Positions 5,349-63,826 of a DNA stretch of 64,000 bases are shown here, one piece after another (position 1 is the first letter of the stretch; the number at the start of each line of letters is the position of its first letter). A program made the translations under genes and the position numbers. Source of the stretch: a virus; the IMG/VR virus record IMGVR_UViG_3300045988_178965, positions 32,001-96,000 of that record. The stretch is one strand, 5' to 3'. The notes under the pieces were generated by a model. That model did not search any database and was not told the origin of the DNA. It saw only the letters and a program-made list of their open reading frames with translations.

Positions 5349-7036
5349 CAACAATAACCTACAATATTTCAATTGTAGGGAAAAAGCATTCAGCAGAATT
5401 TCAACAAGCCACAGACAGCAGAAATGCTGTCGTGGCTATTGATACATCTCCTTTGAATGGATCCCTAATTGAAATTGAACACAAAAGCCAAGGAGACAAA
5501 CTCAGATTTGTCAGACTTGAATCAAAATCTATATCCGGAGTTACCATTAGGTCTAGCAGCCCTGATATATTAATTACGGATATATCTCACAATGGATTTC
5601 CGCTTTGGTATAAATATCAGCTTAGAGGGGATCCAATTGTCACAGCAGAACATTGGACAAAAGACGATAAGTGGATATATAGCGATTCACCATATCTTAA
5701 TGTTAAATATGGTAGTATTGAGTTGCGCGAAATCGGAATTCCCGTATTTGTAAAAGAGTCCAATCATTTCCTAAATGCCATTAAGACAATCGACAATAGA
5801 ACATATTCTGTATCCCAAGATGCATCTGGAGAATATATTATTAGATGTAAAAAACAGAATATTTCATTCTCTAGTATATCTGGTGAAATTGCAACAATTT
5901 CTGAATATACAAATCCAAATAGCCCGATAGTAGGCATCTTTGCAAACGAATATTCTAGTGATAGGATTGCCGTAATTAATGAGCTAAAGACGAAGTATAG
6001 ATTTCAGTCTCCAGAGTTCATAGCATCAGTAATTAAAACAAATAAAATAACAGTTCCTGTAAATTCGGGTGTAGCAAAATTACCGCATAGGTATATCAAT
6101 TCTGTTAAATCTCATGCAGATAAGGACGTAGTATATAATCAAGGATTCGTACTTGTTAACCAATCATTGAAATCAATTGAGGTTGAATATGAATATATTG
6201 AGCCTGTAAACAACTATGCATCTATACCATTAAACATTATTAGAAATGCGTCTGTAGTTAAGGTCTATGCAACACCATATTCTATTACAAAGGGTGATGC
6301 AGAGGATTTTTTGAATACAGAACTTTTATTCTCTGCATTTGATAAATTTGGGGTCTGCATTTATTCAACAATGACTGGCATAGACTATTCTGCGCCGTCG
6401 GCTATTGTTATTACACCTAATTCCGTAAACGGGGTTGAATATAAAATAGGCAGTAATAATGCAAAATCAGAGACACCGCGATCATTATTCCACACTTCAC
6501 CAGAATCAGAAAAAGATACGGTATTGGAAATAGCAGAAATACGAATTAAGAAAATGAATTTAGACTATGCCATTTCCGGAAGAAGAGCTATGCCGGCGAA
6601 AGGTAGTATAGGCCTAAGGGATTTAAGGATTCCAAAGCTATCTTTCTCAAGAATAGTTTTATCTGAATATACTCCACAGTCCGTAAACTCTAACGTAACA
6701 GTAATAGACGCAAATTTATCAGCTGGATATCCAATTATTATTGGTGAAACAGAAACCGATATACTTGCAGAGATAGAAAATATAGAAGAAGAAACAGATG
6801 TTGATTTTGTCGATGATGATGATGGCCGTTTCCATAGACGGAATTCTCCTGTATTCCTTGGCGAGAATTCTAAACTATGTTTAGTTAATACATATAATAC
6901 ACATAGAGAGATTTTAGTAGAGCTTGCATCGAAAAAGCTTGATGGTAAAACATATATTAAAGCTAAAAAATCAGATTATCCTATAGGAAGAATTACAGCC
7001 GAATATATACATTTATCTAATATTCCAAAAGGTTGA
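5345..7036 (+). CDS. virion structural protein (function unassigned)
   Basis: 563-aa ORF with 4-nt overlaps at both ends (translational coupling) inside the structural block. Confidence 0.5.
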   Translation: MTTITYNISIVGKKHSAEFQQATDSRNAVVAIDTSPLNGSLIEIEHKSQGDKLRFVRLESKSISGVTIRSSSPDILITDISHNGFPLWYKYQLRGDPIVTAEHWTKDDKWIYSDSPYLNVKYGSIELREIGIPVFVKESNHFLNAIKTIDNRTYSVSQDASGEYIIRCKKQNISFSSISGEIATISEYTNPNSPIVGIFANEYSSDRIAVINELKTKYRFQSPEFIASVIKTNKITVPVNSGVAKLPHRYINSVKSHADKDVVYNQGFVLVNQSLKSIEVEYEYIEPVNNYASIPLNIIRNASVVKVYATPYSITKGDAEDFLNTELLFSAFDKFGVCIYSTMTGIDYSAPSAIVITPNSVNGVEYKIGSNNAKSETPRSLFHTSPESEKDTVLEIAEIRIKKMNLDYAISGRRAMPAKGSIGLRDLRIPKLSFSRIVLSEYTPQSVNSNVTVIDANLSAGYPIIIGETETDILAEIENIEEETDVDFVDDDDGRFHRRNSPVFLGENSKLCLVNTYNTHREILVELASKKLDGKTYIKAKKSDYPIGRITAEYIHLSNIPKG

Positions 7037-10838: not shown

Positions 10839-12575
10839 ATGAATAAAGTAGAAGAAGCTATTTACAATTTAAATTCATTCCAAGCTTCATCTGCTGGAAC
10901 TCAAATACCAGATATTGGTGATGAGTATACTGAAGCTGGATTAAATAAAATTCTAAAAGAATGGTATGACATCCTATTTTGCAATCAGGATAAAATGGAT
11001 GAATTGCTGCCGAGAATAGAGAAGTTTGAAATTAAATCATCTGACTATATAAGAGACATTAAAACAAGGCTGGCTAAGGCATCGTCTGATGCCAAGGCCG
11101 CAAATGTCGCAGATAGGTCAATCACTAAATATACAAAAGCTGTTTATTATTCTCCATCTTCTATTTCATACATAGAGGATGAGACAACTGCTTATGTTGA
11201 TGGTGGAAAAATTGTTGGGGTAAAAGAATCTGATACGTTTGAAAAATCTGAATCTTCCATTATTTCCAATAATACCAATTCAGGAATATCCTGCTATATA
11301 TTTGATAATAATAAGAAGATTGATTTGGTGTGGACCGTTGATAGCGGAGAGGCACAAAATCGCAACATCCTAAATTCAAACGTTAAGTCAACTATATCTT
11401 ACTCTTCATTAAATGGCGGAAGCAAAAGCTTTATACTAGATATTGATAGAAAAGAATACGGCGTATTTAATAATATTCAATTAAAAACAAAACGGGCGTA
11501 TGTATATACAATTTACACAAGCAATGATTCGATAGGCTATAATAGGATAACAGATAGAGTCCTAACAAATAGTCTAAATGAATCAATTGGTGAAACTAAC
11601 GACCGTTATGTTCGTATAGTTATTGATCTTGATAAAAGCTCAGACTACATATCCGGAAGATACATTTACAATGTAGAGATAAGTTCTTTCCATATAGCAG
11701 TAAAAAGATACTCCACCCCAACAGAATACGTTACAGGCGATATTCCTATTAGAGCCACTGGTGAGTTTGTAGCAATAGATACTTGTGATAATTACCAGTC
11801 TAAAAATGTTGATATGCACTATCAGATCTCAATTAATGGTGGCGCATATAAAGACATTAAACCTCTCAGGAAGTTATCAAAAACTGGTAGGTCAATTAGG
11901 AGCATTTTGCCAATAAATGACTATTCTGATAATAACATTGTTACGTTACACTCCCATACTAGAGATTCTGATGGGAACACTTTCACGACTGAAATAGATC
12001 CAGCATTACTAGAGACAAATATCTTTAAGTATTACGATGCCACAAATCCTATATCCGTTAAAGGTAATGTAGTATCTGCATCCGGTATAGCTATTTCAGA
12101 AAAGGTTGTAAACTTTAAGGATACATACTTCGTAAATGGTGTACCATTCTCTGGCGAATCTACTATTTATACAGGGTTTAACAGTTTATCATTCCCTGCT
12201 GACAATTATGTCGAAATTTATGACGTAACTAAATACACTCTAGTATCTTTTAAATCCGGGGAGTTTAGGGTTGTGGATACGGCCGGCGAAGAACATACAA
12301 TCGTAGATGAAGACTGGGAGAAAAACCCATTCACTTCTATTGTTCTATCGCTTAAATATATCCTTGGTAGAGAACTAGAGTACGGCAAAGATATTAATAC
12401 TAGAAAATCAGAGAATGGATACCAGCTAAAAACATCAGAGAATGTAAAAGCTCTATATGTAGCTGCCAGACAAAAGAATGCTATTATTAATACCGCCAGA
12501 ATTAAGATAAAGATGAAAACCTTGGATGGATACACTAAACCTAATGTATCCAGGATTTTAATTAAGGTAGCATAA
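10839..12575 (+). CDS. virion structural protein (function unassigned)
   Basis: 578-aa ORF starting 1 nt after the upstream stop. Its own stop overlaps the next start (TAATG). Confidence 0.5.
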
Positions 12576-13489
12576 TGCAGTTAGATTTAAAACTGAAACA
12601 AGCCGCATTCTTCTTCGTCAACGGAATTTCTGTCAAAAAGGAATTTTCAACATTCAATGTTGACAATGGTGATACTGCAGCTTTAATTTCAATAGTCAGA
12701 GGGATTGAAGGCAAAAGGATTGAATCCTCAGTACCTGCCGCATCTATACGAGCAATTGTTACTCCATCTGGCGGAGGTGGAGGCGGAGGAAGTGGTAGTC
12801 CGGGTCCTCAGGGCCCTCAGGGGCCACAAGGCCCAATGGGTCCAGTAGGTCCAGTAGGACCGATGGGACCATCAGGTGCAACTGGTCAACCAGGCCCACA
12901 GGGACAACCTGGCCCGCAAGGACAGACAGGACCTAAAGGTGACACCGGACCAGCAGGGGCAAATGGACTACCTGGCCCTAAAGGCGAGCGTGGTGCAGAC
13001 GGTTTACCTGGTGCAAAAGGAGAGGCCGGAGAACGCGGAAAAGACGGCAAATCTGCTTATGAGATTGCTGTTGAGCATGGCTTTGTTGGAGATGAAGTGC
13101 AGTGGCTTGAAAGCCTAAAAGGACGTAACGGTGAACGCGGCCAAGATGGTCCGGCCGGCCCTAAAGGGGATAAAGGCGAGCCATTTAAATTCTCTGACTT
13201 TACTTCCGAACAGTTAGAGTCACTAAAAGGACCCAAAGGGGACACAGGTCCAGCCGGACCTCCAGGACCTAAAGGTGATGCCGGCACTGGTCAAAATGGA
13301 GCTACTCCAGACCTCTCTCTAAAGATTGCTAAATTCTACAATACTACCGATGATATGAACGCAGACTCTGCTATAGAAGAAGGAACATTCGTTGGAGTTT
13401 TGGACAGAGAGGGTAATCAGGAAAACTCTATTATATACAGAAAGGTTAACGGACTTATGGAAGAAATAGTTAACTTTTCAGAAATCTAA
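12575..13489 (+). CDS. collagen-like repeat tail fibre protein
   Basis: 304 aa. A Gly run is followed by about 35 uninterrupted G-X-Y triplets ([34 protein letters not shown]...). These are interrupted by the phage-fibre motif [26 protein letters not shown], after which further G-X-Y blocks follow. Confidence 0.8.
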
Positions 13490-36919: not shown

Positions 36920-38329
36920 TTATCTTGTAGAGATTGTAACATCTCTAAGTCCATTAAAATCACGAACCACATCAATATCTGCGGTTTTAATATAAAATGG
37001 ACCAAACCGTATAGTTGTTTTATTGATCTTAACACCTGGACTAACCTCTGGTTCGAAATTAGCCATAGTGATAAATACTTTCGTATTATTGTCACCTTCA
37101 GACTTATTATCTCTAATTTTATTTAGGATAGTTCTAAATCTAATAGGAGATGGAATCCCAGTTAAATTGATAGTAATTTCATCAAAAGTGGATGAAGCCT
37201 CTTCATTTGAATTAGAAGTATCTACGGTTAAATCCAAAACAGAATTAATTACGCAATCAATACCAGTTCCCCTATAGCTAGGTTTTGCACTTATAAAACA
37301 TTGCAAATACTTGCCGGCGGCAAATAGCTCTTTATTTGGTTCATAAACATTCGAGAATGCAGTTAAAGCATAATCTCTACCGTATATATCTTTAGCCTCA
37401 ATAAACGCCATAGGCTTACCGGTTTTAGTTGTAATAACTCTAACTTTTGATACCTGACAAACAGTTGCCCCATAATAAACACCAGTTTTAGCAACTTCAT
37501 TTTCAATAAAGGCAGAATCATGATGAGGATCTTTAATATCTCTTGTAATAACATCCATAGGATTGCCAGAAATATACACTCCAATCAGTTCTTTTTCTGC
37601 TTCCAAAATTTCAAGAAGAGTAAATTCCTTGAATAATGGATCGACGAAATACGTATGTTCAATTTTACAGAATTCTTTTATTCTCTCTTCTGCCTCAGGC
37701 GTTAGAGCCTTCGCGGCCCTACATTCTTTTTTAAGAGCGCCCTTAGGGTCAAAGTCAAGAATAAATTTAGAATATGAGCGAATAAGAACGCTTCGTTTAT
37801 ATCCAAAAGAATCAACGGCGCCGGAAAGAATTAAACTATCACAAACCTTCTTATTGATATTAGTAGTCAAAAGGTAAGTTCTAAGAAGAAAATCTCCAAA
37901 ACTACTATAAGGTCTAAGTTCAATTAATTTACTAACAGCACCATCACCAATACCACGAATACCAGATAAACCATAAATGATATCATTATTACGGTTAAGG
38001 CCAAATGTACCAACAGATTCATTCAGGTCCGGCGGCAAGATATTGATACCCTTAGATACAGCATCCTCCATATAAGTTTTCTTCATTGGAGGATCAGTTT
38101 CACAAGTAATAATAGAACAATAAAACTCTTCCGGATAATTGGCTTTAAGCCATGCAGTATAATAAGTCAAATGACCATAGGAGTAGGCATGACTCGCATT
38201 GAATGCATACCTCGCAAATTCTAGAAGCTCTTCCCAGAACTGCGCTACTTCTTGTTTATCTTCACCATTGGCCACTGCACCATTGATAAAGTCTTCTCTG
38301 AGCGATGCTAGTTTGGCTGCATCTTTTTT
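36920..38329 (-). CDS. dnaE: DNA polymerase III alpha-type (DnaE) C-part, exon 5
   Basis: Begins KKDAAKLASLREDFINGAV and contains ARYAFNASHAYSYGHLTYYTAWLKANYPEEF, which matches the DnaE finger motif GFNKSHAAAY..AYLKAHYPAEF. An OB-fold-sized tail follows. Confidence 0.85.
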   Translation of the reverse strand, partial: KKDAAKLASLREDFINGAVANGEDKQEVAQFWEELLEFARYAFNASHAYSYGHLTYYTAWLKANYPEEFYCSIITCETDPPMKKTYMEDAVSKGINILPPDLNESVGTFGLNRNNDIIYGLSGIRGIGDGAVSKLIELRPYSSFGDFLLRTYLLTTNINKKVCDSLILSGAVDSFGYKRSVLIRSYSKFILDFDPKGALKKECRAAKALTPEAEERIKEFCKIEHTYFVDPLFKEFTLLEILEAEKELIGVYISGNPMDVITRDIKDPHHDSAFIENEVAKTGVYYGATVCQVSKVRVITTKTGKPMAFIEAKDIYGRDYALTAFSNVYEPNKELFAAGKYLQCFISAKPSYRGTGIDCVINSVLDLTVDTSNSNEEASSTFDEITINLTGIPSPIRFRTILNKIRDNKSEGDNNTKVFITMANFEPEVSPGVKINKTTIRFGPFYIKTADIDVVRDFNGLRDVTISTR

Positions 38330-39345
38330 CAATTATGTTAACCTATCGGTTTTTTATCCGATAGTTCTTATGCTTCATATTTGCATAAGTTCGGCGTACA
38401 TTTTCATCCCATTAGGATGTCGAACACTCTTGGAGATATTATATCTTTTCAATCTCTACGCTCTACGGTGGTTTACAGTTCCTGCAAACTTACCTCGGTA
38501 TTAGCATCTCAGCCTTCACCGATTTTGCTCGATACACATTGTCTTATTACTAAAACAAGGGGCAGATTCAAATTTTATCTTTTTTCTTTTTAAATACACA
38601 TTAGCATTAGAATACATATAGTCGTATAGCATTTTAGAGGGAAGTATCCCACCAAAATGAATGGAACAGAAATTTCCTCTATCGATAATTTTATACTCTC
38701 TTAGAGTTGCACCATTATTAAACAATATAGAATTCAAAACTGGTATAAAATTTTTTGAACCGGTAAAGCTTATTTTGGTCGTATTACCAGATAGGTAAAC
38801 AGAACCATCACCGTCAAAATAGCCTCTTATAAAATGAGGCAAAAGATTGGGATTGATTTCTGGAAATTCATAATCCAAACTTTTATTTCTTTTTATACCT
38901 TTAGATTCCAAAATATTTATAAAAACTTCATCAGAAAATGAAATTTTTGAAGTAGGATTTCTTCCTTCGCGGTGATACGTTTTAACCAAATTATAATCAC
39001 CAGAAATAAGAAAAGATAAGCGATTTAAAATATCTATATCGGATGAAAGAAGCTCTATCGAGAAAGTTCTCTTACCATTACTAAGATATGATATACTACC
39101 GTCTGCACCTATTAATCCTAAGAAGTAGGCTTTCTCTTCAGTATCTATATTATTGAAGAAATCGGAATTTATATTAAATCTACACCTACTTCGGCTGACC
39201 TTTATCCCATTTGATTTTAAAAATCTTGTAATTTTGTAAGGGCTTTCGCCGGTAATAGATGATATCTGCGCTATACTATTATGGTTATTATAAAGGGTAA
39301 TAAAATCTTGCATTGTGTTAATAAAAAAATAAAAGATAAAAATCT
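38330..39345 (-). mobile_element. group I intron D in dnaE (1016 nt) with LAGLIDADG ORF
   Basis: Splicing GCT GTA GGT|AAA AAA GAT restores ADVLRKAVG|KKD (DnaE LRRAMGKK). U is at -1 and the intron ends ..AACATAATTG. It shares the core GGGATGAAAATGTACGCCGAA plus a hairpin. Confidence 0.75.
38516..39313 (-). CDS. intron-encoded LAGLIDADG homing endonuclease
   Basis: 265 aa with two dodecapeptide motifs (YFLGLIGADGSIS and FIRGYFDGDGSVY) and an N-terminal HTH-like segment. Confidence 0.85.
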   Translation of the reverse strand: MQDFITLYNNHNSIAQISSITGESPYKITRFLKSNGIKVSRSRCRFNINSDFFNNIDTEEKAYFLGLIGADGSISYLSNGKRTFSIELLSSDIDILNRLSFLISGDYNLVKTYHREGRNPTSKISFSDEVFINILESKGIKRNKSLDYEFPEINPNLLPHFIRGYFDGDGSVYLSGNTTKISFTGSKNFIPVLNSILFNNGATLREYKIIDRGNFCSIHFGGILPSKMLYDYMYSNANVYLKRKKIKFESAPCFSNKTMCIEQNR

Positions 39346-40632: not shown

Positions 40633-40884
40633 CAGAAATACAATACAACGGTATCTGATATTTCTATCAGGATCGGACTATCTCATCACCATATCAAATG
40701 ACTTAGGTGTCGGGCGCTGTATCTGGTTATTAAGAGTACTCTAGCTCTCCAGTAGTCTCTGCACCTTCTTATGGTGTACCATAAGCTTGGCTCAGGATTG
40801 CCTTATCTTAAATTAAGACTTAGGTTTCCCTGAATTCACCCAATTTTAACCTAACTGTTTCCAATTAGGGCCCCAGACCGCTTT
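40633..40884 (-). mobile_element. ORF-less group I intron B in dnaE (252 nt)
   Basis: Separates STYRP|GPLNIP (DnaE ALYRPGP). U is at -1 (CCT) and the terminal base is G. The core CACCTAAGTC..ATATGGTGATGAGATAGTCCGATC plus the hairpin ctgata-GAAA-tatcag are nearly identical to intron A. Confidence 0.75.
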
Positions 40885-42072
40885 AGGGCGATACGTACTA
40901 ACAATTACTGCAATATCATGAATAGTTTTAGGCTTACAGGCATTAACGAATCCAGACATACCAGCCTCTTCAAATTGAAAGATACCATAGTTTCTCTCAT
41001 TCCAAAGAACCTTATACGCCGCCTCATTATCCATTGGTAAATTATACCAATCGATATCAATGCCATGACGCTTCTTAATAAGCTCTCTAGCAAAGTTAAG
41101 AACTGTAAGCGTCTTAAGTCCTAAAACATCTAGCTTAACAACATTTGACGTATCTTCAATTTTATTACCTTCCCATTGAATAACGGGGGCGCCTTTACTA
41201 TCCCACAATGGAACATCTTCCCATAGTGGGCGATCAGATAATGCAACTCCACAGTTATGAACGACTACACCATTAGCAATGTAAGAAGAATCATCTAGTA
41301 CAGTGAAGTTATATACATCAATATCGCCATCAAGGTTAGCATCCGTCCATTTGGAAACGTCATTAACTCTGCGAGCATACAATACATCGTCATTGTCGTT
41401 AACTCCAATCATGCCATTCCCGATATTAACATTACCTGCATCCACCCAAACGATATTGCCGTTAAAGCTTCCTTCGGATTTAAATTCTTCTGAATTTATA
41501 AGTGCAATAGGATGGTTCGAAGTACATTCAATATAGCCGAAGTTATCATATTGAGAACATTGATACGAGATATGTAGAATATCTTTTCTCTTAGCTTTAT
41601 TAACTTGGACTTCAACTATTGGTTTCCATCTCAACTTATGGGTTAATGCGAGGTAACCAGGCTTAACATCTTCAATGTTAATTAGCTCTGACTGAGAGTT
41701 TTCATCTTTTTTGATGTAAACTTTTGTGCCAGCTAACAGGCATGCATGAATGCCCTGGGCGCTCAAACAATCGCTAAGCTTAATTGCATCATTCCAAACC
41801 TCTTTCACCTCAGCGTCAGAATTATACAGGGCTTTGATTTCATCACTCTCTTCAAGTAATACATCGAGTGGAGGGCACCCGATATCAGGCATTAAGCTAG
41901 ATATCTTATTAGCCTTATCAAAACCCATACCATGAATACGTGCAGCGTCTTTAAAGGCCTTCTTGCCGCCGGTATATGTCAGGGTGCCTAAATGGGCAAA
42001 CCCTTCGCCATACTTCTCTCTCAACATTTCGAACACTTCAGGACGACGTTCTTTCTCTACATCGGAATCAAT
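40885..42072 (-). CDS. dnaE: dnaE C-part, exon 2 (contains an intein)
   Basis: Begins IDSDVEKERRPEVFEMLREKYG, which is the second half of the catalytic PDIDxDF motif. It contains QGIHA-[intein]-CGVAL (DnaE HAAGVVI), VKLDVLGLKTLT and GIFQFEE (DnaE GVFQLES). Confidence 0.85.
41254..41742 (-). mobile_element. mini-intein (163 aa) in DnaE C-part
   Basis: Starts CLLAGTKVYI, has block B CTSNHPI (TxxH) and ends GVVVHN followed by Cys. Excision restores GIHA|CGVAL. Confidence 0.85.
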
Positions 42073-42325
42073 CGTTTATGTTCAGTATAGGTCGTTAATC
42101 TATACCCGGTACGAAACCAGCTCTATGTCGCCATAGAGACCAGACTATCTCATCACCATGTCCATAAGGATTTAGGTGCTCTGCGCTTCGAACCACTTGG
42201 CCCTACATAATAGTCGTTACACGTCTTTCGCTTTCGCAAATTTTCGCACGGTATTGTCTTCTAGAGAGTTCCACCGTTTTCACAGAGTTTTCTATTGTCA
42301 ATTTCTTGACAAAGGGACTAATTTA
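42073..42325 (-). mobile_element. ORF-less group I intron A in dnaE (253 nt)
   Basis: Separates GGFPD|IDSDV, inside the catalytic Asp motif. U is at -1 (GAT) and the intron ends ..AACATAAACG. It has the core CACCTAAATC..ACATGGTGATGAGATAGTCTGGTC plus the hairpin ctctatg-GCGA-catagag. Confidence 0.75.
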
Positions 42326-42586
42326 ATCCGGGAAACCGCCGCCGACAGTATGCACTTTACCGTCTGGCGGGGTTGCTACGATTCCGAGCAAATAGGCAAT
42401 AGAGGAGTTAGCTTCATTCTCTTCAATATTTTTTACACCAGCATTATACAGATTCAAATAATAGGAATCTATATGATGCAATTCGCAGTGGTTCAATTCG
42501 AACATAATATTTGCTTTATGCTCTTTGAACCAATCCGTATTAGAATGAGAAAGAACTAACTCTCTTAGCGTTTTATGTTCAGCCAT
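42326..42586 (-). CDS. dnaE: dnaE C-part, exon 1 (own start codon)
   Basis: The ATG at 42586 is preceded by AAGGAG and overlaps the upstream stop (AATGGCTGA). It ends ..NSSIAYLLGIVATPPDGKVHTVGGGFPD, the first half of the PDIDxDF motif. Confidence 0.75.
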
Positions 42587-57022: not shown

Positions 57023-57925
57023 TTAATTACACACTGTTTTTAAAACTGTTTCTACAGTTGTAGTGGGCAAACATGTAAAATTAATTCTTGCAGAAATTAC
57101 ATCTGGACGACTCATAAGTGCACATAACCAATTATGACCGACCAGTGCCGCTGTATCATTCGCAACCAGGAATTGTTCTTCCAGCTCGACATCTGTATCT
57201 GCTTCCGCGCAAGAATAGATTTTTACTTCTTCGTCTTCAGTTAATGTTTCTGGAGACATGGTAAAAAATCTTAATTTTGCGTAGTCGCTTGGTGTGGCAC
57301 CATACGGAGTGGCAAACAATTGACCGTGGGCCAATTCATTTCCAATATCTACAATCCAGCCGGTAAGTGACAGAGAGTGAACTGCACGTCTGGCGTTTTG
57401 ATTGTCAACGAGATTGAAGACCACTACAAATTCAGAATAGCAGACCATATCACCCAAAGTATTAATATGGCTAAAATGATTTGCATCATAATTACTTTTT
57501 TCTGTCAGATACTTGTCAATGTATTGAACACTAACATCCTTAAGTGTTGCACCATAACGAACAGCCATAACTTCGGCTTTATTTCTACCAATATCTGACT
57601 CGACAAAGTTCTGCCGAATCAGGTTTTTAGATTCGACCGTGTCACCATCCACAAGTACCAATGAAAAATCATTAGCAAGCAAGTTTTTACGCTTCATGTC
57701 GTTAATCGTTTTTGCAAGTTTTGGAATCAGCCAAGAGCCAGTTCCGCCGCAACCAACTACTACAATTTTACCTAAAGGAACATGACGCTTATTTGATTCT
57801 TGGCCAGAAAGTTTTTTCATCAAAGCTTCTACTTCATACTCTTCGACCGCTTTTTGATGATTATTGACTTCTTCTTCTGTTGAAAAGAATTCAATATTTT
57901 TTCTACCAATTGTAACTTTTTTCAT
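57023..57925 (-). CDS. ThiF/MoeB/E1-like adenylyltransferase
   Basis: The start is trimmed to MKKVTIG (ATG at 57925, preceded by AAAGGA). It has a Rossmann motif (VVVGCGGTGSWLIPKL) and the E1 signature LVLVDGDTVESKNLIRQNF (DxDxVexSNLxRQ). Confidence 0.8.
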   Translation of the reverse strand: MKKVTIGRKNIEFFSTEEEVNNHQKAVEEYEVEALMKKLSGQESNKRHVPLGKIVVVGCGGTGSWLIPKLAKTINDMKRKNLLANDFSLVLVDGDTVESKNLIRQNFVESDIGRNKAEVMAVRYGATLKDVSVQYIDKYLTEKSNYDANHFSHINTLGDMVCYSEFVVVFNLVDNQNARRAVHSLSLTGWIVDIGNELAHGQLFATPYGATPSDYAKLRFFTMSPETLTEDEEVKIYSCAEADTDVELEEQFLVANDTAALVGHNWLCALMSRPDVISARINFTCLPTTTVETVLKTVCN

Positions 57926-57936
57926 AAATATTTCCT

Positions 57937-59331
57937 TTAAAATTTTTCCAAATAAGCACTGATGCGTTCGGGCAGACATAAACATTTCACACCAGAAGCA
58001 TCCAGTTCTTCAGACAAACGATTGCTGGTCACAAAAAGCGAATCTTCTACAGCAAAAACAGAAGAAGCAATTGCAACGCATAGAGCTTTTGAAGGATCGG
58101 TGATTTTTTCAACAGTACTTCTAGGACCGGAATGAACGTCCGAAATTGAATCAACCAGGCTCGACATAAAAGTTTGAAGGCCAACTGAGAATACATGGTA
58201 TGGGTGATCATCTGGCAACTCTATCGCATTGATAAAATCAGAGGCAGCTGCTTCAATTTCTTTAAACTCTTCATCGCTATACAGAAGAGTATCGTTAGGT
58301 TTATAAAAGCTACGAAGAATCGAAGAGATCCATTTATACTTCGTCTTATCTTCATCCGCTTCATAACCAAGAATCCATTCATCCTGTATATCATTACCAG
58401 TTACAATTTTAGCATTTGTATCACGAGTAGCACTATTCCAATGAGTATCGTAACCGTCGTAAGGATAATCCCCAATGTCTCCGTAGTAATCATAGTTATA
58501 GGGGTACGCCCCGTAGTCTCGAGTTTGGACTTTGGAGACGTTTGATGGGGCTGATTGGTAGCCTGTATAGGGATACCCTTTCGATTTGGATTTACCATAA
58601 TTAGCATAAGCTCCATAGTTATAAACTTTCTCTTTGACTTTTAAATAATCTTCTTCCGGAACATCAAAACCGAATTGATTTTCTTCAGAAAAATCAAAGA
58701 TATCCTGCAATTGTAATGGAATTAGTGCATCAGCACAACATGCTCGTTGAACAGTTTTATATGTAAAGGTATTATCAGGTTTATTTACCAAATTGCCAAA
58801 TACAAATGAATAAATACCATGTTTACCTTTTTCATCTGAGTTGTCTGTGGCTGAATAGAATGCACCCATTGTATGATGTGAGTGAGATGTCAATACCAAC
58901 ACTTTATTAGGGTCATCATACCAACCGCCAGTTCTTTGATAAGTAATAGACGCACCAGCAACTTCTTGTTCTGGAACTTCAACAAGAAATTCTTGGGCCT
59001 CTTTATCCCACCAAATTTGCGCCATCACTTCATTCTTATTGGTTTCATAAATCTTACGATAGAAACGAATAATTCCATAAAATAATTTGCCGGGAATTTT
59101 TGGAATGTCTGTAGACTGAATAAAGCTTTCAGACATTTTTGGCATGCCGATCATCTTAGTTTTAAAGCTTTCTGCTTTAATCCAGAAATCGCCAATAACA
59201 GAACGGACAAGTTTATAAATACCGTCTTCCGCGACTATGGAATCTCCATCCTCGGCATCTTCTTTATTTTGTACAATTTGAGGTAAGCGAAAATCCATTT
59301 CGCCCATCAAGTCTTCAATGCTCAAACTCAT
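57937..59331 (-). CDS. JAB/MPN+ (JAMM) metallopeptidase with long C-terminal extension
   Basis: 464 aa with a complete JAMM motif: E101 (NEVMAQIWW) then H150-S-H152-x7-S160-x2-D163 (LTSHSHHTMGAFYSATD). A Tyr/Gly/Asp-rich low-complexity linker and a C-terminal region of about 160 aa follow. Confidence 0.8.
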   Translation of the reverse strand: MSLSIEDLMGEMDFRLPQIVQNKEDAEDGDSIVAEDGIYKLVRSVIGDFWIKAESFKTKMIGMPKMSESFIQSTDIPKIPGKLFYGIIRFYRKIYETNKNEVMAQIWWDKEAQEFLVEVPEQEVAGASITYQRTGGWYDDPNKVLVLTSHSHHTMGAFYSATDNSDEKGKHGIYSFVFGNLVNKPDNTFTYKTVQRACCADALIPLQLQDIFDFSEENQFGFDVPEEDYLKVKEKVYNYGAYANYGKSKSKGYPYTGYQSAPSNVSKVQTRDYGAYPYNYDYYGDIGDYPYDGYDTHWNSATRDTNAKIVTGNDIQDEWILGYEADEDKTKYKWISSILRSFYKPNDTLLYSDEEFKEIEAAASDFINAIELPDDHPYHVFSVGLQTFMSSLVDSISDVHSGPRSTVEKITDPSKALCVAIASSVFAVEDSLFVTSNRLSEELDASGVKCLCLPERISAYLEKF

Positions 59332-59358
59332 AATGTTTTCCTTTAATTAATCGTATAC

Positions 59359-60075
59359 TTACATCATAATGCCGCTGAGAATTGCATCATAATCATGCAT
59401 CAGTTCGCGCTCTAAGTTATAGTCTTCGTTTCCTACAGCCTTCATTGCAAAGAATTTGCAAGTAAGATTTCGAAAACGGCCGTTAACTTTAGAACTGATT
59501 TCTTCAGCAGTGGAATTTCTGAATGAATATGTATTGTCCAAATCTGTATTAAATGTTGAACCAAAGAACAATTGTGGCAATTGCTCAATATCAAACAAGT
59601 TTCCACTCTTCAAAATAGAATTAACGGTTCTTTCATTTTCGCCCCAGCAAATTCCATAAGAAGCACTATAATTATTCATTCTGAGATACCATAGTTTTGT
59701 ATCCGGTTTGATTTCATCGCCATTGCAAATAAAGATAGAGCTTTTTTCACGGATAAAATTGCCTCTAGAATTAACTACGGCTTTCATTACAATGCCGGGC
59801 AGTTTTACTACCACATCCGGAAGGCCATTATATTTAATTGTAAACATTCTAGAAGGCTGGTAAATCAAAAAGCCCTTGTACTCAGAATTTTCCCAAATTC
59901 TTAAAATATTTTGCGGAATCAGACCTGAATCTTTATTCTCGCCATTTGGGCCGGCCAAAGCAGCAGCAGCAGCTTTTGTAGTAACCATTTTTGAGGTACA
60001 TTTACCTTGCAGGTCTTGGATATGAATAACAGCTTTATCCTTATTTAAAACCTCAATATTAATTTTTCCTTGCAT
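59359..60075 (-). CDS. candidate prokaryotic E2-like protein (tentative)
   Basis: 238 aa, 27 nt upstream of the JAB gene. A beta-rich core is followed by NNYSASYGICWGEN, which resembles the N-x(n)-G-x-(I/V)-C-x-G active-site loop I recall for bacterial E2-like proteins of PRTRC-type cassettes. Confidence 0.35.
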   Translation of the reverse strand: MQGKINIEVLNKDKAVIHIQDLQGKCTSKMVTTKAAAAALAGPNGENKDSGLIPQNILRIWENSEYKGFLIYQPSRMFTIKYNGLPDVVVKLPGIVMKAVVNSRGNFIREKSSIFICNGDEIKPDTKLWYLRMNNYSASYGICWGENERTVNSILKSGNLFDIEQLPQLFFGSTFNTDLDNTYSFRNSTAEEISSKVNGRFRNLTCKFFAMKAVGNEDYNLERELMHDYDAILSGIMM

Positions 60076-60103
60076 CTTTTATTCCTTCGAAATAAAATTT
60101 ATT

Positions 60104-60733
60104 TTAATCAATTACAAAACGAGAGTAATCACATTCAAAAGAGTAATAACCCCTGTCTATGGTGCGAACATTCCTTAATGTACTTGCATTCTCTTTTGCT
60201 GCACGATTTAGTTTGTAAGATATAGAGTTATATACAGAGTCATGCATCATATTAAATTCAGAGACTGAATCCCTTAATTTACATAATATATGATCAAACA
60301 TATCATAAGTTGGATTCATGTCAAATCTAATAAGCTTATATATATAAAATTTAATTCCCCTAAAATTATTTAAAGTGCATGCATCATCCCTATCTCCAAA
60401 GTTTAATCTTCGCATATAAGAGAAATCGTCATGATACTCATAATAAATATAGGGACTAAGATTTATATAATAGCCATAAAAACCCTGATACAAATTATAA
60501 CCAATTATATGACTTATTAAAGGCTTACCGATTTCGTTTAGTATTTTTTCAATATCCATACGAACTGGTATAAGAAATTCCAAAAATATAGACGCGCTCT
60601 TTGTCCTGCGAATATCGAACATATTGGGCAACAAGATATTAAAATCTTCAATATTTCCAGAATAATCTGCGTCTAATAAAATCTTAGATACAATCAATTT
60701 ATGTAAAGGGTTATTAAGATCAATATTAGTCAT
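60104..60733 (-). CDS. hypothetical protein
   Basis: The start is trimmed to MTNIDLN (ATG at 60733, overlapping the upstream stop as ATGACTAA). Confidence 0.45.
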   Translation of the reverse strand: MTNIDLNNPLHKLIVSKILLDADYSGNIEDFNILLPNMFDIRRTKSASIFLEFLIPVRMDIEKILNEIGKPLISHIIGYNLYQGFYGYYINLSPYIYYEYHDDFSYMRRLNFGDRDDACTLNNFRGIKFYIYKLIRFDMNPTYDMFDHILCKLRDSVSEFNMMHDSVYNSISYKLNRAAKENASTLRNVRTIDRGYYSFECDYSRFVID

Positions 60734-61283
60734 CGCGGCACTCAAACAATAATCTATGTAGATTCGCATATTTTAATTGAAATGCCTCCAAGACACTATT
60801 AAAAGATAGGCGATTTTTCTCAATTGAGACGGTAGGATGATAATAGATATTGTCTATACTTTCAAAATCTCTAAATTCAAATTGTTTATCGTTTCCTTGA
60901 ACAGGATAATAATAAATCCTTTCGGCATTAATTTTATTCATCATTTGACGAGACGATGAATTTATATAGCTTCCGCCAATATGAACCAAATGAAGATCAT
61001 TCCCTCTTTTAAAAAACATAAGGAATGTAGTTAACCTCATACTAAACAGTTTTGAAACTGACTCTGGGTCAATCCTTATTGTGCCGGTAATAAGTACTCT
61101 ATCAGGATTACTTTCAGGTGGCATAAAAATTTTATAATATTTGCCAAGTAGAACATTGCCTACTAGATTAAGGTCCATTTCGTAAGGCGTTTTAAATCCA
61201 GAACTTTGGATTATTTTTAATAGCATAATCCTTTGATATATTTTATCTTTATCCATTTTAACCCTACCAAAATTAATGACCAT
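60726..61283 (-). CDS. hypothetical protein
   Basis: 185-aa ORF overlapping the upstream gene by 11 nt. Confidence 0.45.
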   Translation of the reverse strand: MVINFGRVKMDKDKIYQRIMLLKIIQSSGFKTPYEMDLNLVGNVLLGKYYKIFMPPESNPDRVLITGTIRIDPESVSKLFSMRLTTFLMFFKRGNDLHLVHIGGSYINSSSRQMMNKINAERIYYYPVQGNDKQFEFRDFESIDNIYYHPTVSIEKNRLSFNSVLEAFQLKYANLHRLLFECRDD

Positions 61284-61860
61284 TCTTAGTTAAATTTTTG
61301 AAAGTTTCACCACTTAAAAGATTCGAAATGCTATAGCTCATAGCACTATCACGACAGCAGAAAACATTAATTTTATCAATCAATGATTTATGCACAAATA
61401 AAGAATTGCCTTGAATGAATAGACCATCTATGCCATAAGCTCCATCATATGTACCCATAACATTTCTCTTTAAAATCTCCAATAGGTTTATATTTTCGTC
61501 ATATATTCCCAGGGTTATGCCTTCATTCCTTACATGCATCTTGACATAAGTTTCATCCTCTTCAATATGAATAAGTCTCTGTTCATAAGACAGCGGAGAA
61601 ATAGAAGATTCTAAACTATAATCGGCTATGAGCTCTCTGATTGTTTTTTTAAAATCAACTACAGCACTTATATAAATCCAATGATTATTAGATACATCGG
61701 ACTCTATACTAAAATGATCAAAACGCAAGTTCTTAAAGAATACGTTAAAATGATGAGGTAAAATATTCTTAGGAATTTTATATTTTATATTTAATTCATT
61801 TGCAATTTTTGCAAAAAGTAGTCTGAGAATAGCCTGTTCATTATCATTTCGCATTCTCAT
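61273..61860 (-). CDS. hypothetical protein
   Basis: 195-aa ORF. Confidence 0.45.
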   Translation of the reverse strand: MRMRNDNEQAILRLLFAKIANELNIKYKIPKNILPHHFNVFFKNLRFDHFSIESDVSNNHWIYISAVVDFKKTIRELIADYSLESSISPLSYEQRLIHIEEDETYVKMHVRNEGITLGIYDENINLLEILKRNVMGTYDGAYGIDGLFIQGNSLFVHKSLIDKINVFCCRDSAMSYSISNLLSGETFKNLTKNGH

Positions 61861-61868
61861 TCCTTTAT

Positions 61869-62204
61869 TTAAAAATATTCGTCTTGAATACTTTGGGCAT
61901 TATTAAGAACATCAAGAGCGGTATCGATTGTTACAGAAGATTTCATCCAGAATTCGGGTTTGAAGTTTCTAAAAATGCGCTCGATAATTTCTGGTTTAAT
62001 ATGAACAGTTGATCGAGCTTCCATAATAACTTTTAGGTCTTCAATATCAATACCTATATCTTCGCCTTGTTCGAAAATATTACGAAGGTTTAGAATAACA
62101 TCTTCGCTCATTTCGCCTGCTGCTTTAATTTCCTCTTCCGCCTCTTTGGCTGTGTTTTCCACATTACCAAGAATGGCTAAAAAGTCATCATCAACATAAG
62201 ACAT
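61869..62204 (-). CDS. hypothetical acidic protein
   Basis: The start is trimmed to MSYVDDDF (ATG at 62204, preceded by GGAGAG). Confidence 0.45.
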   Translation of the reverse strand: MSYVDDDFLAILGNVENTAKEAEEEIKAAGEMSEDVILNLRNIFEQGEDIGIDIEDLKVIMEARSTVHIKPEIIERIFRNFKPEFWMKSSVTIDTALDVLNNAQSIQDEYF

Positions 62205-62239
62205 ATTTCTCTCCAATAAAATACAAGAATAGCCAATCA

Positions 62240-62289
62240 TGGCGAAAAGAAATGGACTCCGCTGCATATACATGCATAGTACGGAGTCC
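62240..62289 (-). terminator. probable intrinsic terminator after the 64-aa gene
   Basis: 8-bp stem ggactccg / cggagtcc (62254-62289) with an inner tgcat/atgca helix, followed on the - strand by ATTTCTTTTC. Confidence 0.5.
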
Positions 62290-62370
62290 TATAATTATTT
62301 GGGCCCCATTGACCCACATTACGCAATCAAGCGTTTAATAAAAAATCAAATTGTATTTTTAAAGCTTTAC

Positions 62371-62565
62371 TTAAGCTTTAGAACCGGTACGGTTTGTAAT
62401 CACCAGGTAGCCATCGGCATTTACGCTGTGATCGAAAGAGCCTTCAGTGCGCAGAGCAACGAATTTAGTTTTCAGGGCGGTCAACATGTTTTCAACAGTT
62501 GTAGTGCTGCCATTTGGCAGAGTTTTAGTTTCACCGTTGTAAATATATCCACGAATTTGAGACAT
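62371..62565 (-). CDS. 64-aa candidate beta-grasp ubiquitin-like protein (tentative)
   Basis: The sequence is MSQIRGYIYNGETKTLPNGSTTTVENMLTALKTKFVALRTEGSFDHSVNADGYLVITNRTGSKA. The pattern (aromatic-x-Y-x-G, LP-x-G, T-x-x-V, hydrophobic strand, tail G-S-K-A) resembles my recollection of prokaryotic Ubl/PRTRC protein C, whose tail is G-T-K-G-like. It is followed by its own terminator. Confidence 0.35.
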   Translation of the reverse strand: MSQIRGYIYNGETKTLPNGSTTTVENMLTALKTKFVALRTEGSFDHSVNADGYLVITNRTGSKA

Positions 62566-62597
62566 AGTATTTTCTTTCTATAGTAAGGTTTAAAAGA

Positions 62598-62975
62598 TTA
62601 GCGACGATAAGTTGCTACAACTTGACCGCTAACATCGGAAATGACGAGACTGTCACCGTCAACGAGATTTGTTCGGGCATATTGTTGGAATTTTTCCAAA
62701 GATTCGAAAACCAAACGGTTATCAATGCCGGATACAAATGCGGTTAGGTCATCAGGGTGCATTTCGGTATCACCATCGAGTTGACGCATAACTTCTTCGG
62801 CGTCCAGTTCTCGAGATTCAACCAACAATGCGGCATTTAATTGGTCAACAGAAAGAGGACCAGATTGTGCAGGAATGCCAGTAGGTACACGACCTTGAAG
62901 TGCAGAAGACAAGGCTTCAGCAATTTGTTCAGCAGTAGTGGTTTCACCTGCAATTACGATTTGAATTTGAGCCAT
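62598..62975 (-). CDS. hypothetical acidic protein
   Basis: 125-aa ORF that is visibly more GC-rich in codon choice than its surroundings. Confidence 0.5.
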   Translation of the reverse strand: MAQIQIVIAGETTTAEQIAEALSSALQGRVPTGIPAQSGPLSVDQLNAALLVESRELDAEEVMRQLDGDTEMHPDDLTAFVSGIDNRLVFESLEKFQQYARTNLVDGDSLVISDVSGQVVATYRR

Positions 62976-62981
62976 AATATT

Positions 62982-63455
62982 TTACCAATTTAGGATTTTA
63001 CGAATAGCATAAGATACCAAATTTAAAATCACTTCGGCCTCTTGGCCACTTACAGGAATTGAAAATTGGGATTTTACACCGCCATTGTTTTGAGCCACCG
63101 AAATGAAGTAAGGCGATTTACCTTCAGTTGCTCTAGTAAGTTTAATAACTTTTGTAGAGCCATCAAATTCATGAAACATTTCGGCCTCTTGTCCGCGCTT
63201 CATGGAATAAACAATCTGAGACAAGTCAGGCATTCCAAGTTTTACGCCGATTTTCTTATTTTCCCATTCGTATTGTTTTTGATTTCCAGAACCTTCTTTA
63301 ACTGGAGCAATTTCCAAATAAATAAATCCTTTATTCAGAATATCTTTTCCTGAAGAGTTATTAATACGAGGGTTAACCAAGCGCATACGAAGCGCCGCCT
63401 TGGATTTGTAAATAGCATATTCCAAGGGTTGTTCTGCTACATTATAATTAGACAT
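62982..63455 (-). CDS. Whirly-like single-stranded DNA-binding protein
   Basis: 157 aa, collinear with plant Whirly/p24 proteins. Matches are YKSKAALRMRLV (YKGKAAL), GFIYLEIAP..QKQYEWENKKIGVKL (QYDWxxKQxFxL), EMFHEF (CEFFHDP), KVIKLTRA..SPYFISV and FSIPVSGQEAEVILNLVSYAIRKILNW (IPITRAEFAVL...LPYLIGW). Confidence 0.7.
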   Translation of the reverse strand: MSNYNVAEQPLEYAIYKSKAALRMRLVNPRINNSSGKDILNKGFIYLEIAPVKEGSGNQKQYEWENKKIGVKLGMPDLSQIVYSMKRGQEAEMFHEFDGSTKVIKLTRATEGKSPYFISVAQNNGGVKSQFSIPVSGQEAEVILNLVSYAIRKILNW

Positions 63456-63463
63456 ATTTCACC

Positions 63464-63826
63464 TTAAAAAGGAATATCACTAATAGGAGTTTCTGTTTCA
63501 ACTCTTCTGGTTGCAGCCTGTCCTTGATATTGAACTTCGGGCGGCACCTGAACATTGTATCTATTTCCATTATTTCCAGAAGAAGTTCTGTTATAAGCAT
63601 TCAATACAGCAGCAGTAATTGCTTCTCTAGATTCTTTGCTTACAGGGCCAGCGGTTTCTTGCCATGTTCCATCTTGTTTTTTATAAGAAGGGAACGCAAC
63701 AAATGGGCCATTTCGACCAGAATAAATAGAAATATTGATTTGGACAAATCCTTCGATTTTAACAAAACCACGAGCCAGTGTAGAGCCGTTAGAAGAATTT
63801 TCCCATAGGGTAACTTGAATATCCAT
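63464..63826 (-). CDS. SpoVG-like nucleic-acid-binding protein
   Basis: 120 aa. ARGFVKIEGFVQINISIYSGRNGPFVAFPSYKKQDGTWQETAGPVSKESREAITAAVLNAY aligns with SpoVG [60 protein letters not shown]. Confidence 0.65.
   Translation of the reverse strand: MDIQVTLWENSSNGSTLARGFVKIEGFVQINISIYSGRNGPFVAFPSYKKQDGTWQETAGPVSKESREAITAAVLNAYNRTSSGNNGNRYNVQVPPEVQYQGQAATRRVETETPISDIPF

Follow-up and report, generated by a model that had tools for sequence, protein, structure and literature searches.

A probable phage-adapted variant of the PRTRC ubiquitin-like conjugation cassette in the genome of a large phage

Described operon types and the phage locus

Five operon types combining an activating enzyme (E1), a conjugating enzyme (E2) and a JAB peptidase were predicted in 2006, and biochemical support or a role in defence has since been obtained for four of them: 6A (MBL), 6B (cyclic-oligonucleotide-based antiphage signalling system, CBASS), 6C (Bil) and 6E (Bub). 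In the Bil systems of type 6C the E1 has several domains (IAD-AAD-CYS) and the E2 is of the CEHH type, and Cap2 is an E2-E1 fusion working with a CD-NTase (PMC10557695). The Bub systems of type 6E proceed by oxyester intermediates without catalytic cysteines and have a DUF6527 protease (PMC10557695, PMC11601596). The fifth operon type, 6D (Iyer, Burroughs & Aravind 2006, PMC1779556), corresponds to the PRTRC families (TIGR03734-03741). Here we describe a related cassette in a stretch of viral DNA of 64,000 nucleotides (positions 32,001 to 96,000 of the IMG/VR record IMGVR_UViG_3300045988_178965), which as a whole is called the window below. The cassette lies between positions 57023 and 62975 and carries homologs of the four core PRTRC parts, namely a ubiquitin-like protein (Ubl), an E2-like protein, a JAB peptidase and a ThiF-type E1. 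The catalytic residues of these proteins are invariant, their genes follow the PRTRC order and such sets are widely spread among large phages. We consider, with moderate confidence, that the cassette is a phage-adapted version of the PRTRC / 6D ubiquitin-like conjugation system.

An earlier note on this DNA had proposed a PRTRC/Bil-like cassette. The PRTRC-type set of Ubl, E2-like protein, JAB and E1 was recovered, but the locus is neither Bil-like nor Cap2/Cap3-like. All the open reading frames (ORFs) listed in that note were found again in place on the minus strand, with gaps of 11 nt between the JAB and E1 genes and of 27 nt between the E2 and JAB genes. The cassette proteins were scanned against the libraries Pfam, PHROGs, NCBIfam and PADLOC, and were compared with a close phage family of 13 related loci and with deeper lineages (e.g. 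our loci L034-L036).

A scan of IMG/VR with the E1 alignment gave 69 loci, many of them on contigs of 100-260 kb. A JAB gene is present in 53 of these loci, an E2_D-like gene in 46 and both genes in 42, mostly in the order E2-JAB-E1. An Ubl-like ORF on the same strand accompanies 37 of the 69 E1 genes, in most cases preceding the E2 gene by about 1-2.5 kb. The cultured carriers are Acinetobacter phage ME3, Vibrio phages D69, D148 and D181, Salmonella phage Arash, Bacillus phage WH1, Edson and KLEB27-3. In the records of the cultured phages, the cassette genes (ME3_130/135/136/139 and gp246c-248c of Arash) are labelled hypothetical, ThiF, "PRTRC protein A" (in ME3) or "structural protein", and the NCBI labels give a full PRTRC set in Ralstonia phage Dina. 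The 116 proteins detected by liquid chromatography-tandem mass spectrometry in purified Arash particles include ribonucleotide reductase and proteins numbered in the range of the cassette (PMC10585845), although the numbering of this proteome table maps uncleanly onto the GenBank tags. We take this detection as evidence of expression and not of a location in the virion.

The E1, JAB and E2-like proteins

The E1-like adenylyltransferase (300 amino acids, 57023..57925, minus strand) is intact and consists of a single adenylation domain, closest by its profile matches to the PRTRC ThiF type. It is matched by Pfam ThiF (E-value 4e-15), and its best NCBIfam model is PRTRC_ThiF (TIGR03736; E-value 4.8e-20, 71.9 bits) over 221 residues (53-273). 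The motifs GCGGTGS, VDGD...KNLIRQNF, LVDN and YSC239AEAD are conserved, the GxGxxG motif being encoded at 57734-57754, the Asp/Arg/Lys ATP motifs at 57572-57652 and the Cys239 motif at 57197-57217. The residues G58, G60, D93, D95, K116, D174 and C239 are conserved wherever they could be aligned, in the close family and in dozens of phage homologs. Cys239 is invariant across the PRTRC and phage E1s, the "SC" cysteine being common to the PRTRC ThiF proteins. The ThiF/E1 assignment, first read from the motifs alone, is confirmed by the Pfam match and by this conservation. The grouping with sulfur-transfer enzymes, which the same note had singled out for a check, was not found: the ThiF, MoeB and TcdA models reach at most 38 bits, on the Rossmann part only, against 72 bits for PRTRC_ThiF, and the E1 is therefore set apart from these enzymes. 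With cut-offs of 150-450, the ThiF and MoeB models reach 15-38 bits and cover the N-terminal part only.

A ThiF/MoeB sulfur-carrier pathway was rejected on these low scores, on the S-K-A tail of the Ubl candidate and on the lack of pathway genes in the cassette. In a wider form of this idea, the E1 would make a thiocarboxylate or an acyl-adenylate on the small protein for the modification of a small molecule, a nucleotide, DNA or tRNA, in the manner of ThiS/MoaD/TtuB or of MccB-type enzymes. The matches of the Rossmann part to ThiF, MoeB and TcdA agree with this, as do the nucleotide-modifying genes found nearby in related phages (a thymidylate-synthase homolog and an AdoMet decarboxylase) and the fact that no PRTRC system has a demonstrated conjugation. 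We nevertheless regard a carrier role as quite unlikely. The best E1 match is PRTRC_ThiF, across most of the protein; the cassette has no rhodanese, cysteine desulfurase or cofactor-pathway gene; and the tail of the small proteins is G-x-K-G/A instead of G-G. Moreover, the invariant Cys/Asn pair of the E2-like protein and the JAB peptidase would be superfluous for a carrier, and the tandem Ubl genes described below suit a modifier.

In some relatives the E1 gene is interrupted. In locus L010 it is broken by an insert of about 245 nt (12441-12685) directly past V-D-G-D-T-V, and such an insert also occurs in L006, L008 and several IMG/VR loci (L031, L032, L036, L037, L039). No Rfam family matched this insert, which could be an undescribed small intron or reflect a split gene.

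The JAB/JAMM metallopeptidase (464 amino acids, 57937..59331, minus strand) scores 27.3 bits with Pfam Prok-JAB, above the cut-off of 25. Its sole NCBIfam match is PRTRC_A (TIGR03735; E-value 5.6e-13, 48.9 bits), and hhalign aligns it with PRTRC_A at 96.8% probability, the N-terminal domain being aligned including the "VR" and "W(D/N)" positions. The JAMM motif E101...H150-S-H152-x7-S160-x2-D163 (58843-58971) is kept wherever aligned in 50 non-redundant phage homologs, so that the JAMM call made earlier on this ORF holds. The protein is composed of the PRTRC-A-like N-terminal domain, the JAMM core, a linker rich in Tyr, Gly and Asp, and a lineage-specific C-terminal domain that could not be aligned to other phage lineages. 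A sequence search of the PDB with the JAB gave nothing.

Group I introns typically insert in conserved, functional sequence. In two relatives such introns occupy the H-S-H codons of the JAMM motif (L003:12008-12284 and L008:11151-11458), and this precise position was counted in favor of a phage-adapted PRTRC system. In ME3 (L001, about 4170-6196), about 2 kb carrying a tRNA-Met gene and Zn-finger/endonuclease-like ORFs break up the JAB gene at this site.

The JAB could also serve counter-immunity, by stripping the Ubl or cGAS conjugates made by Bil or type II CBASS of the host, or the phage Ubl, E1 and E2 could jam these systems. JABs of the same superfamily do reverse such conjugates in host systems (PMC10557695, PMC10097602), and the E1 shows a weak similarity to Cap2: the PADLOC Cap2 (E1-E2) models align with residues ~50-150 only, corresponding to the adenylation part (E-value 7e-11). 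Against this, the set is complete, with a dedicated Ubl family and poly-Ubl precursors, which points to an autonomous pathway; no PADLOC (Cap3-type) model matched the JAB; and the cassette occurs in phages of very different hosts, while Bil and CBASS are sparsely distributed. We judge counter-immunity very unlikely as the role of the cassette.

The E2-like protein (238 amino acids, 59359..60075, minus strand) has Prok-E2_D as its only Pfam match (E-value 3.3e-5, 24.1 bits, just below the cut-off of 25). Three of the four relatives tested match this model in the same region, one of them (P0007, 26.7 bits) above the cut-off; the same model gives 158 bits for a bona fide PRTRC protein B. A profile of 31 IMG/VR phage homologs aligned with PRTRC_B at 99.2% probability (E-value 5.6e-20, 185 columns), Cys143 and Asn135 being included in the aligned part. 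Only this profile was sufficient; an alignment of 11 sequences failed by hhalign against three PRTRC_B sequences. N135 and C143 are present in all 37 non-redundant phage homologs, and the ten close homologs share two invariant cysteines, C117 and C143. The predicted active site Asn135-x7-Cys143 has the N-x7-C spacing of the HPN...C motif of canonical E2s. Further on, an F-N-x-D-L segment is largely kept (N176 in 33 of 37 and D178 in 31 of 37 homologs). The candidate catalytic cysteine of the G-I-C-W-G loop, which had been numbered 142, is residue 143 (codon 59647-59649), and the check suggested for its conservation was positive in these alignments.

A sequence search of the PDB with the E2 profile gave nothing. 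What supports the label "E2" is the family to which the protein belongs, together with the profile analysis published for that family (PMC1779556), Foldseek having given no significant match. Of the E2 candidacy proposed earlier, the Prok-E2_D/PRTRC_B profile match and the invariant cysteine stand, while the structural comparison is not significant. The profile evidence supports the placement of this protein in the Prok-E2_D / PRTRC protein B family, with a UBC fold presumed from that membership.

The candidate ubiquitin-like protein and its relatives

The Ubl candidate (64 amino acids, 62371..62565, minus strand) ends with ...N-R-T-G-S-K-A-stop. It is 53-100% identical among 13 related contigs, which is above the conservation of the cassette enzymes, and the tail N-(R/N)-T-G-S-K-A is invariant in this family. 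The AlphaFold2 (AF2) model displays a beta-beta-alpha-beta-beta order with a predicted local distance difference test (pLDDT) value of 68. No model of Pfam, PHROGs, NCBIfam or PADLOC matched the protein, and a profile search of 1.8 billion proteins with the family recovered only its own small family and two repeat-protein artefacts.

The link to PRTRC protein C comes from profile comparisons. Both proteins have an N-terminal x-Y-N-G-x-x-L-P/D segment, and canonical PRTRC protein C ends with G-x-K-G. When the 64-residue family was aligned by hhalign with PRTRC_C, the repeats of Vibrio phage D69 and the ME3 protein, the probability was 82% and the E-value 1e-5 over the full length. In a column-shuffle control (n=100) the mean score was 9.4 and the maximum 22.2, against 31.2 for the real alignment, a value reached by none of the 100 shuffles. 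An iterative hidden Markov model (HMM), whose seeds excluded the window family and were enriched from other phage contigs, detected P0020 (E-value 1.2e-6). Once P0020 was added, the model detected the window protein (E-value 2.2e-3) and P0018 (E-value 2.9e-5). A third iteration was left unused owing to contamination by family members. Some seeds had been picked by their tail, which biases the C-terminal columns and not the rest of the alignment. The tail pattern itself is rare: it was found in 4 of 1128 ORF fragments in nine loci, three of the four being the positional candidates, and in 2 of the 541 ORF fragments of the window, one of which is the 64-residue gene.

About 30 unrelated phage contigs have, upstream of their E2-JAB-E1 genes, an ORF with a G-x-K-(G/A) tail. 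All of 26 non-redundant Ubl ORFs outside the window family show a final G-x-K-(G/A) motif, whose last residue is Gly in 20 of them and Ala in 6. Of the 26, 19 stop precisely at this motif and the rest are extended by 1-48 residues. Seven of the 26 are tandem poly-Ubls of 2-6 units, each unit ending with GTKG. Such genes were observed at L002:3385-4176 (D69), at L069-L072:289-1407 and in L042, L043, L055, L062, L065 and L074; in the literature searched, we found no description of polyubiquitin-like phage genes. Following the logic of polyubiquitin, head-to-tail precursors and capped tails make sense only with a processing peptidase. In D69, an ORF of 263 amino acids comprises three tandem units, each ending with T-G-T-K-G, and ME3 has at the equivalent position an ORF of 63 amino acids with the tail G-N-K-A-A. 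In Arash, an unannotated ORF (L024:50-304) with the tail R-R-T-G-T-K-G is likely the Ubl gene; the record has in its place gp251c (locus coordinates 102-320), which overlaps it in a different frame. Two plasmids, from Clostridium botulinum (L012:6567-6980) and Bacillus thuringiensis (L014:5475-5951), encode an Ubl-like domain fused to a Lys/Glu-rich N-terminal region. These fusions end with ...A-K-G or ...A-K-N-G directly upstream of E1, and a JAB gene was not apparent in either plasmid between the genes for the E2-like protein and the E1.

Judging from the poly-Ubl genes and PRTRC_C, the mature Ubl would end with the last residue of the motif. The window protein would therefore be used as translated, and Ala64 at its end, the counterpart of the last Gly of G-T-K-G, is probably the residue that is activated. 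A cleavage behind Gly61 to expose this glycine probably does not occur. The tail read earlier in the 64-residue protein as resembling that of an Ubl is real and invariant, but the glycine then favored is probably not the activated residue. As for the Ubl claim as a whole, the gene is real, conserved and remotely linked to PRTRC_C, while the beta-grasp fold found no significant Foldseek match. Taken together, the comparisons support a phage-wide Ubl family that includes this protein and is related, remotely, to PRTRC protein C.

Downstream of the Ubl gene, a terminator-like hairpin (GGACUCCG...CGGAGUCC) followed by a U-run was read from the sequence at about 62244..62289 (minus strand), in agreement with the terminator attributed earlier to this ORF. 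The RNA fold z-score of the region 62200-62375 is -4.2; a simple terminator scan did not call the hairpin at ~62244-62289.

This hairpin and the distance of 2.3 kb to the E2 gene would fit a situation in which the C-terminus of another protein is the substrate of the E1, the E2 and the JAB (compare Cap2/Cap3 and the CD-NTase), the 64-residue gene being part of a Whirly/SpoVG block. Like the Whirly gene, it is more conserved than the enzymes, and the direct HMM and NCBIfam tests for PRTRC_C and the Foldseek search for a beta-grasp fold were negative. However, ORFs with an equal tail occur at an equal relative position in about 30 phage contigs of other lineages and also in canonical PRTRC loci, where a Whirly gene is absent. 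In addition, the tail motif is rare in the ORF background, and hhalign and the iterative HMM connect the Ubl families. To another substrate we accordingly give very little credence.

Several results weigh against a PRTRC-type conjugation cassette. The PRTRC scores of the E1 (71.9 bits against a curated cut-off of 144.75) and of the JAB (48.9 against 101.8) are both under the NCBI trusted cut-offs, and for this reason the two proteins appear to be divergent PRTRC relatives and not equivalogs. The 64-residue protein is not matched by NCBIfam PRTRC_C (TIGR03738), and the HMM of its family gave nothing significant against the six-frame ORFs of seven PRTRC-like loci, including PRTRC_C. Its terminal Ala preceded by Lys is unusual for an Ubl. 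In the E2-like protein, F-N-(T/S)-D-L stands where PRTRC_B has HPNH after the Cys, and the conserved His is missing. In a local alignment of the active site to three eukaryotic E2s (UBE2D2/N/I), only the N-x7-C segment was aligned (P 0.005), a suggestive and not significant result. Foldseek searches of the PDB gave a best E-value of 0.93 for the 64-residue AF2 model, with no Ubl among the top hits, and of 0.13 for the E2-like AF2 model (pLDDT 76), with no E2 among the top hits; the models are of moderate confidence, which makes these negatives weak. Neither an E3 nor a target was identified at the cassette, and, as a difference from PRTRC loci, no ParB, E or F protein was identified there with NCBIfam and hhalign. 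Finally, we found no experimental study and no biochemical evidence in the literature on PRTRC/6D.

Genomic setting and proposed mechanism

Directly upstream of the Ubl gene lies an ORF of 125 amino acids (62598..62975, minus strand), conserved in all 13 family loci (46-94% identity) and also found in the deeper lineage L034-L036. It occupies the position of PRTRC protein E, and hhalign against PRTRC_E gave nothing significant; no family of Pfam, PHROGs, NCBIfam or PADLOC matched it. Its mention in the earlier note as a second beta-grasp candidate is without support. Between the Ubl and E2 genes, three or four middle ORFs on the minus strand fill the slot of PRTRC protein F. These are an ORF of 111 amino acids (61869..62204) and three fast-evolving ORFs of 195 (61273-61860), 185 (60726-61283) and 221 amino acids (60104-60769). 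The first of them, mechanically called as 134 amino acids, truly begins at the ATG at 62204, as had been assumed. It is 41-90% identical in the 13 loci, is conserved within the close phage family alone and has no match outside it, nor any in Pfam. The four ORFs between 60104 and 62204 had been described as free of recognisable motifs, and indeed nothing below an E-value of 0.007 was found in Pfam, PHROGs, NCBIfam or PADLOC. The fast-evolving ORFs are 22-68% identical to their relatives or undetectable in them, against 53-100% for the flanking genes, and the lowest G+C content of the window (0.30) falls in this region. These fast-evolving ORFs echo the "rapidly diverging" protein noted in 6D operons by Iyer et al. 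(PMC1779556). Nothing was found when the 125-, 111-, 195-, 185- and 221-residue families were compared by hhalign with PRTRC_E and PRTRC_F and with the middle ORFs from the cassettes of ME3, D69, Bacillus and Clostridium, and the PRTRC_F HMM found no protein in the 69 phage loci.

The gene content of the window (tail fibre, both ribonucleotide reductase subunits, primase-helicase and DnaE-type polymerase) indicates a large phage. RecA, a MazG-like protein, a Whirly-type single-stranded-DNA-binding protein and SpoVG are also encoded. A megablast search with positions 55000-63500 of the window against 50,697 phage records gave no match; its relatives are metagenomic contigs with lengths of about 170-186 kb. 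Within a conserved replication/recombination block, the cassette has a fixed place in more than 13 related phages of this size and in deeper lineages. In the 13 related loci, the core genes of the cassette are about as conserved as the neighboring replication genes. This fixed place and this conservation look like long-term vertical inheritance and not like a recent capture.

They bear on the idea of an exclusion module, in which a conjugation system captured from a plasmid, an integrative and conjugative element (ICE) or a defence system would serve to keep out rival phages or plasmids (superinfection exclusion) and not to promote the phage's own infection. Conjugative plasmids and ICEs are the usual carriers of PRTRC cassettes (PMC1779556), the characterized bacterial Ubl systems (Bil, type II CBASS) are anti-phage (PMC10557695, PMC11601596), and the low G+C content between the Ubl and E2 genes would be compatible with a capture. 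The stable place in the replication/recombination block, the conservation of the core genes and the presence of the cassette in large cultured phages of virulent type that infect Acinetobacter, Vibrio, Salmonella and Bacillus speak against an exclusion module, which we hold to be unlikely.

If the cassette is a phage-adapted PRTRC system, the 64-residue beta-grasp-like protein would be made at a high level from a gene with its own attenuating hairpin. The ThiF-type E1 would adenylate the C-terminal carboxylate of Ala64, and the activated Ubl would pass as a thioester to Cys239 of the E1 and then to Cys143 of the E2-like protein. We infer that the latter would transfer the Ubl to lysines of target proteins during infection; these targets could be host or phage proteins. 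The JAB would reverse or edit the conjugates and, in the relatives with tandem or extended Ubls, would also release the mature Ubl. The three or four hypervariable ORFs are candidate target-specifying or regulatory partners. The neighboring single-stranded-DNA-binding protein, RecA and polymerase hint at a function in DNA metabolism or in an early take-over. More tentatively, many unrelated lineages of large phages may encode a full Ubl pathway of their own, including polyubiquitin-like precursors, and may tag proteins during infection, the hypervariable genes acting as target selectors in an arms race.

Just past the cassette, a strong intrinsic-terminator-like hairpin with an 11-bp stem and a T-run (56993..57019, minus strand) was found by the terminator scan. 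It begins four bases past the E1 stop codon and marks the end of the cassette. Beyond it, 52 nt downstream of the E1 gene, a reverse transcriptase of 509 amino acids (55441-56970, minus strand) matches RVT_1 (E-value 3e-11), has a YVDD motif and weakly matches group II intron, UG17, UG36 and CRISPR-associated reverse transcriptases. Its position is kept in 13 of 13 relatives and in the deeper lineages L034-L037, L039 and L040, and it is missing from the ME3, D69 and Arash cassettes. A diversity-generating retroelement was rejected, the window having no template/variable repeat. Elsewhere in the window, the DnaE-type polymerase is encoded by two ORFs about 10 kb apart (47957-49753 and 36920-38332, both minus strand), matching respectively the N-terminal and C-terminal parts of a single PHROG (phrog_405). 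Two group I introns (Rfam RF00028, 103 and 66 bits) at 40654-40894 and 42121-42335 (both minus strand) flank an ORF of 396 amino acids (40846-42036) in the replication region. RecA of the relative L008 contains an intein with a LAGLIDADG domain. No tRNA was found in the window.

We found no paper on phage-encoded Ubl, E1 or deubiquitinase systems, and these cassette genes are not mentioned in a 2021 survey of jumbo phage genomes. Type 6D is present here as a stable cassette with intact catalytic residues, in large phages of Gram-negative and Gram-positive hosts. If the more tentative reading of protein tagging by many phage lineages is true, this would be the first virus-encoded E1-E2-deubiquitinase-Ubl system in prokaryotes and would give a first function to the PRTRC/6D family, common to plasmids and ICEs. 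With the cultured carriers ME3, Arash, D69 and WH1, the role of PRTRC and phage ubiquitination become directly testable, the tandem poly-Ubl genes representing a ready substrate for the peptidase. The penultimate Lys predicts an unusual tryptic remnant of one residue on the modified lysines, either Ala (+71.04 Da) or Gly (+57.02 Da). The phage labels "hypothetical", "structural" and "ThiF thiamine biosynthesis" could also be corrected.

Comparison with known systems

With the Bil and Bub systems, the cassette shares the logic of Ubl, E1, E2 and peptidase without an E3, the JAB (Bil) and the poly-Ubl forms (Bub). Contrary to Bil, the E1 of the window is a single-domain protein and its E2-like protein matches only Prok-E2_D; contrary to Bub, no DUF6527 is present (no match to PF20137), and Cys239 of the E1 and Cys143 of the E2-like protein are invariant. 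Bil is a host anti-phage system and Bub genes are located near defence regulators, whereas the present cassette is phage-borne. The likeness to type II CBASS consists of the E1 adenylation domain, the E2-like Cys and the JAB peptidase. In type II CBASS the conjugated C-terminal residue is often Gly or Ala. The E1 and E2 of the window are separate genes, unlike those of type II CBASS, and the Ubl is free; no CD-NTase or effector was matched by PADLOC among ten ORFs of the window. Bil, CBASS and Bub identities were thus rejected on architecture, since there is no fusion, multidomain E1, CEHH E2 or DUF6527. The carriers contrast as well, Bil and type II CBASS being host defences and 6D being here borne by a virus.

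The differences from canonical PRTRC loci concern the HPNH His motif of protein B, replaced by F-N-x-D-L in the E2-like protein, the JAB, which is twice as long with its lineage-specific C-terminal domain, and the Ubl, which ends in Ala. All the scores are under the NCBI cut-offs, with no match to protein C. The cassette is embedded among the replication and recombination genes of a phage of about 180 kb; in a similar way, canonical PRTRC loci adjoin ParB, DnaN or SSB genes. Four core families appear to be common to both: Ubl (C), Prok-E2_D (B), a JAB whose N-terminal domain is of the alpha+beta kind (A), and a ThiF E1 of one domain that keeps a conserved Cys. The order Ubl...E2-JAB-E1 on one strand is equal to C...B-A-ThiF, an order seen in the Azospira plasmid pAZI09, the Paraburkholderia plasmid PPGU19_p3 and Ralstonia phage Dina (gp02-gp07). 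The slot of rapidly diverging genes between Ubl and E2, the carriage by mobile elements and the G-x-K-G/A tail of the Ubl are shared too.

The cassettes of the cultured phages differ from that of the window by an identity of only 23-40%, the triple tandem Ubl of D69, the interruption of about 2 kb in the ME3 JAB gene and the lack of an adjacent reverse transcriptase. They display the equal order of Ubl, variable ORFs, E2_D-like protein, long JAB and E1, with the same E2 motifs (N-x7-C-x-G and F-N-x-D-L) and the same Ubl tail. We rate the cassette of the window as a phage-adapted variant of 6D/PRTRC, a family predicted since 2006.

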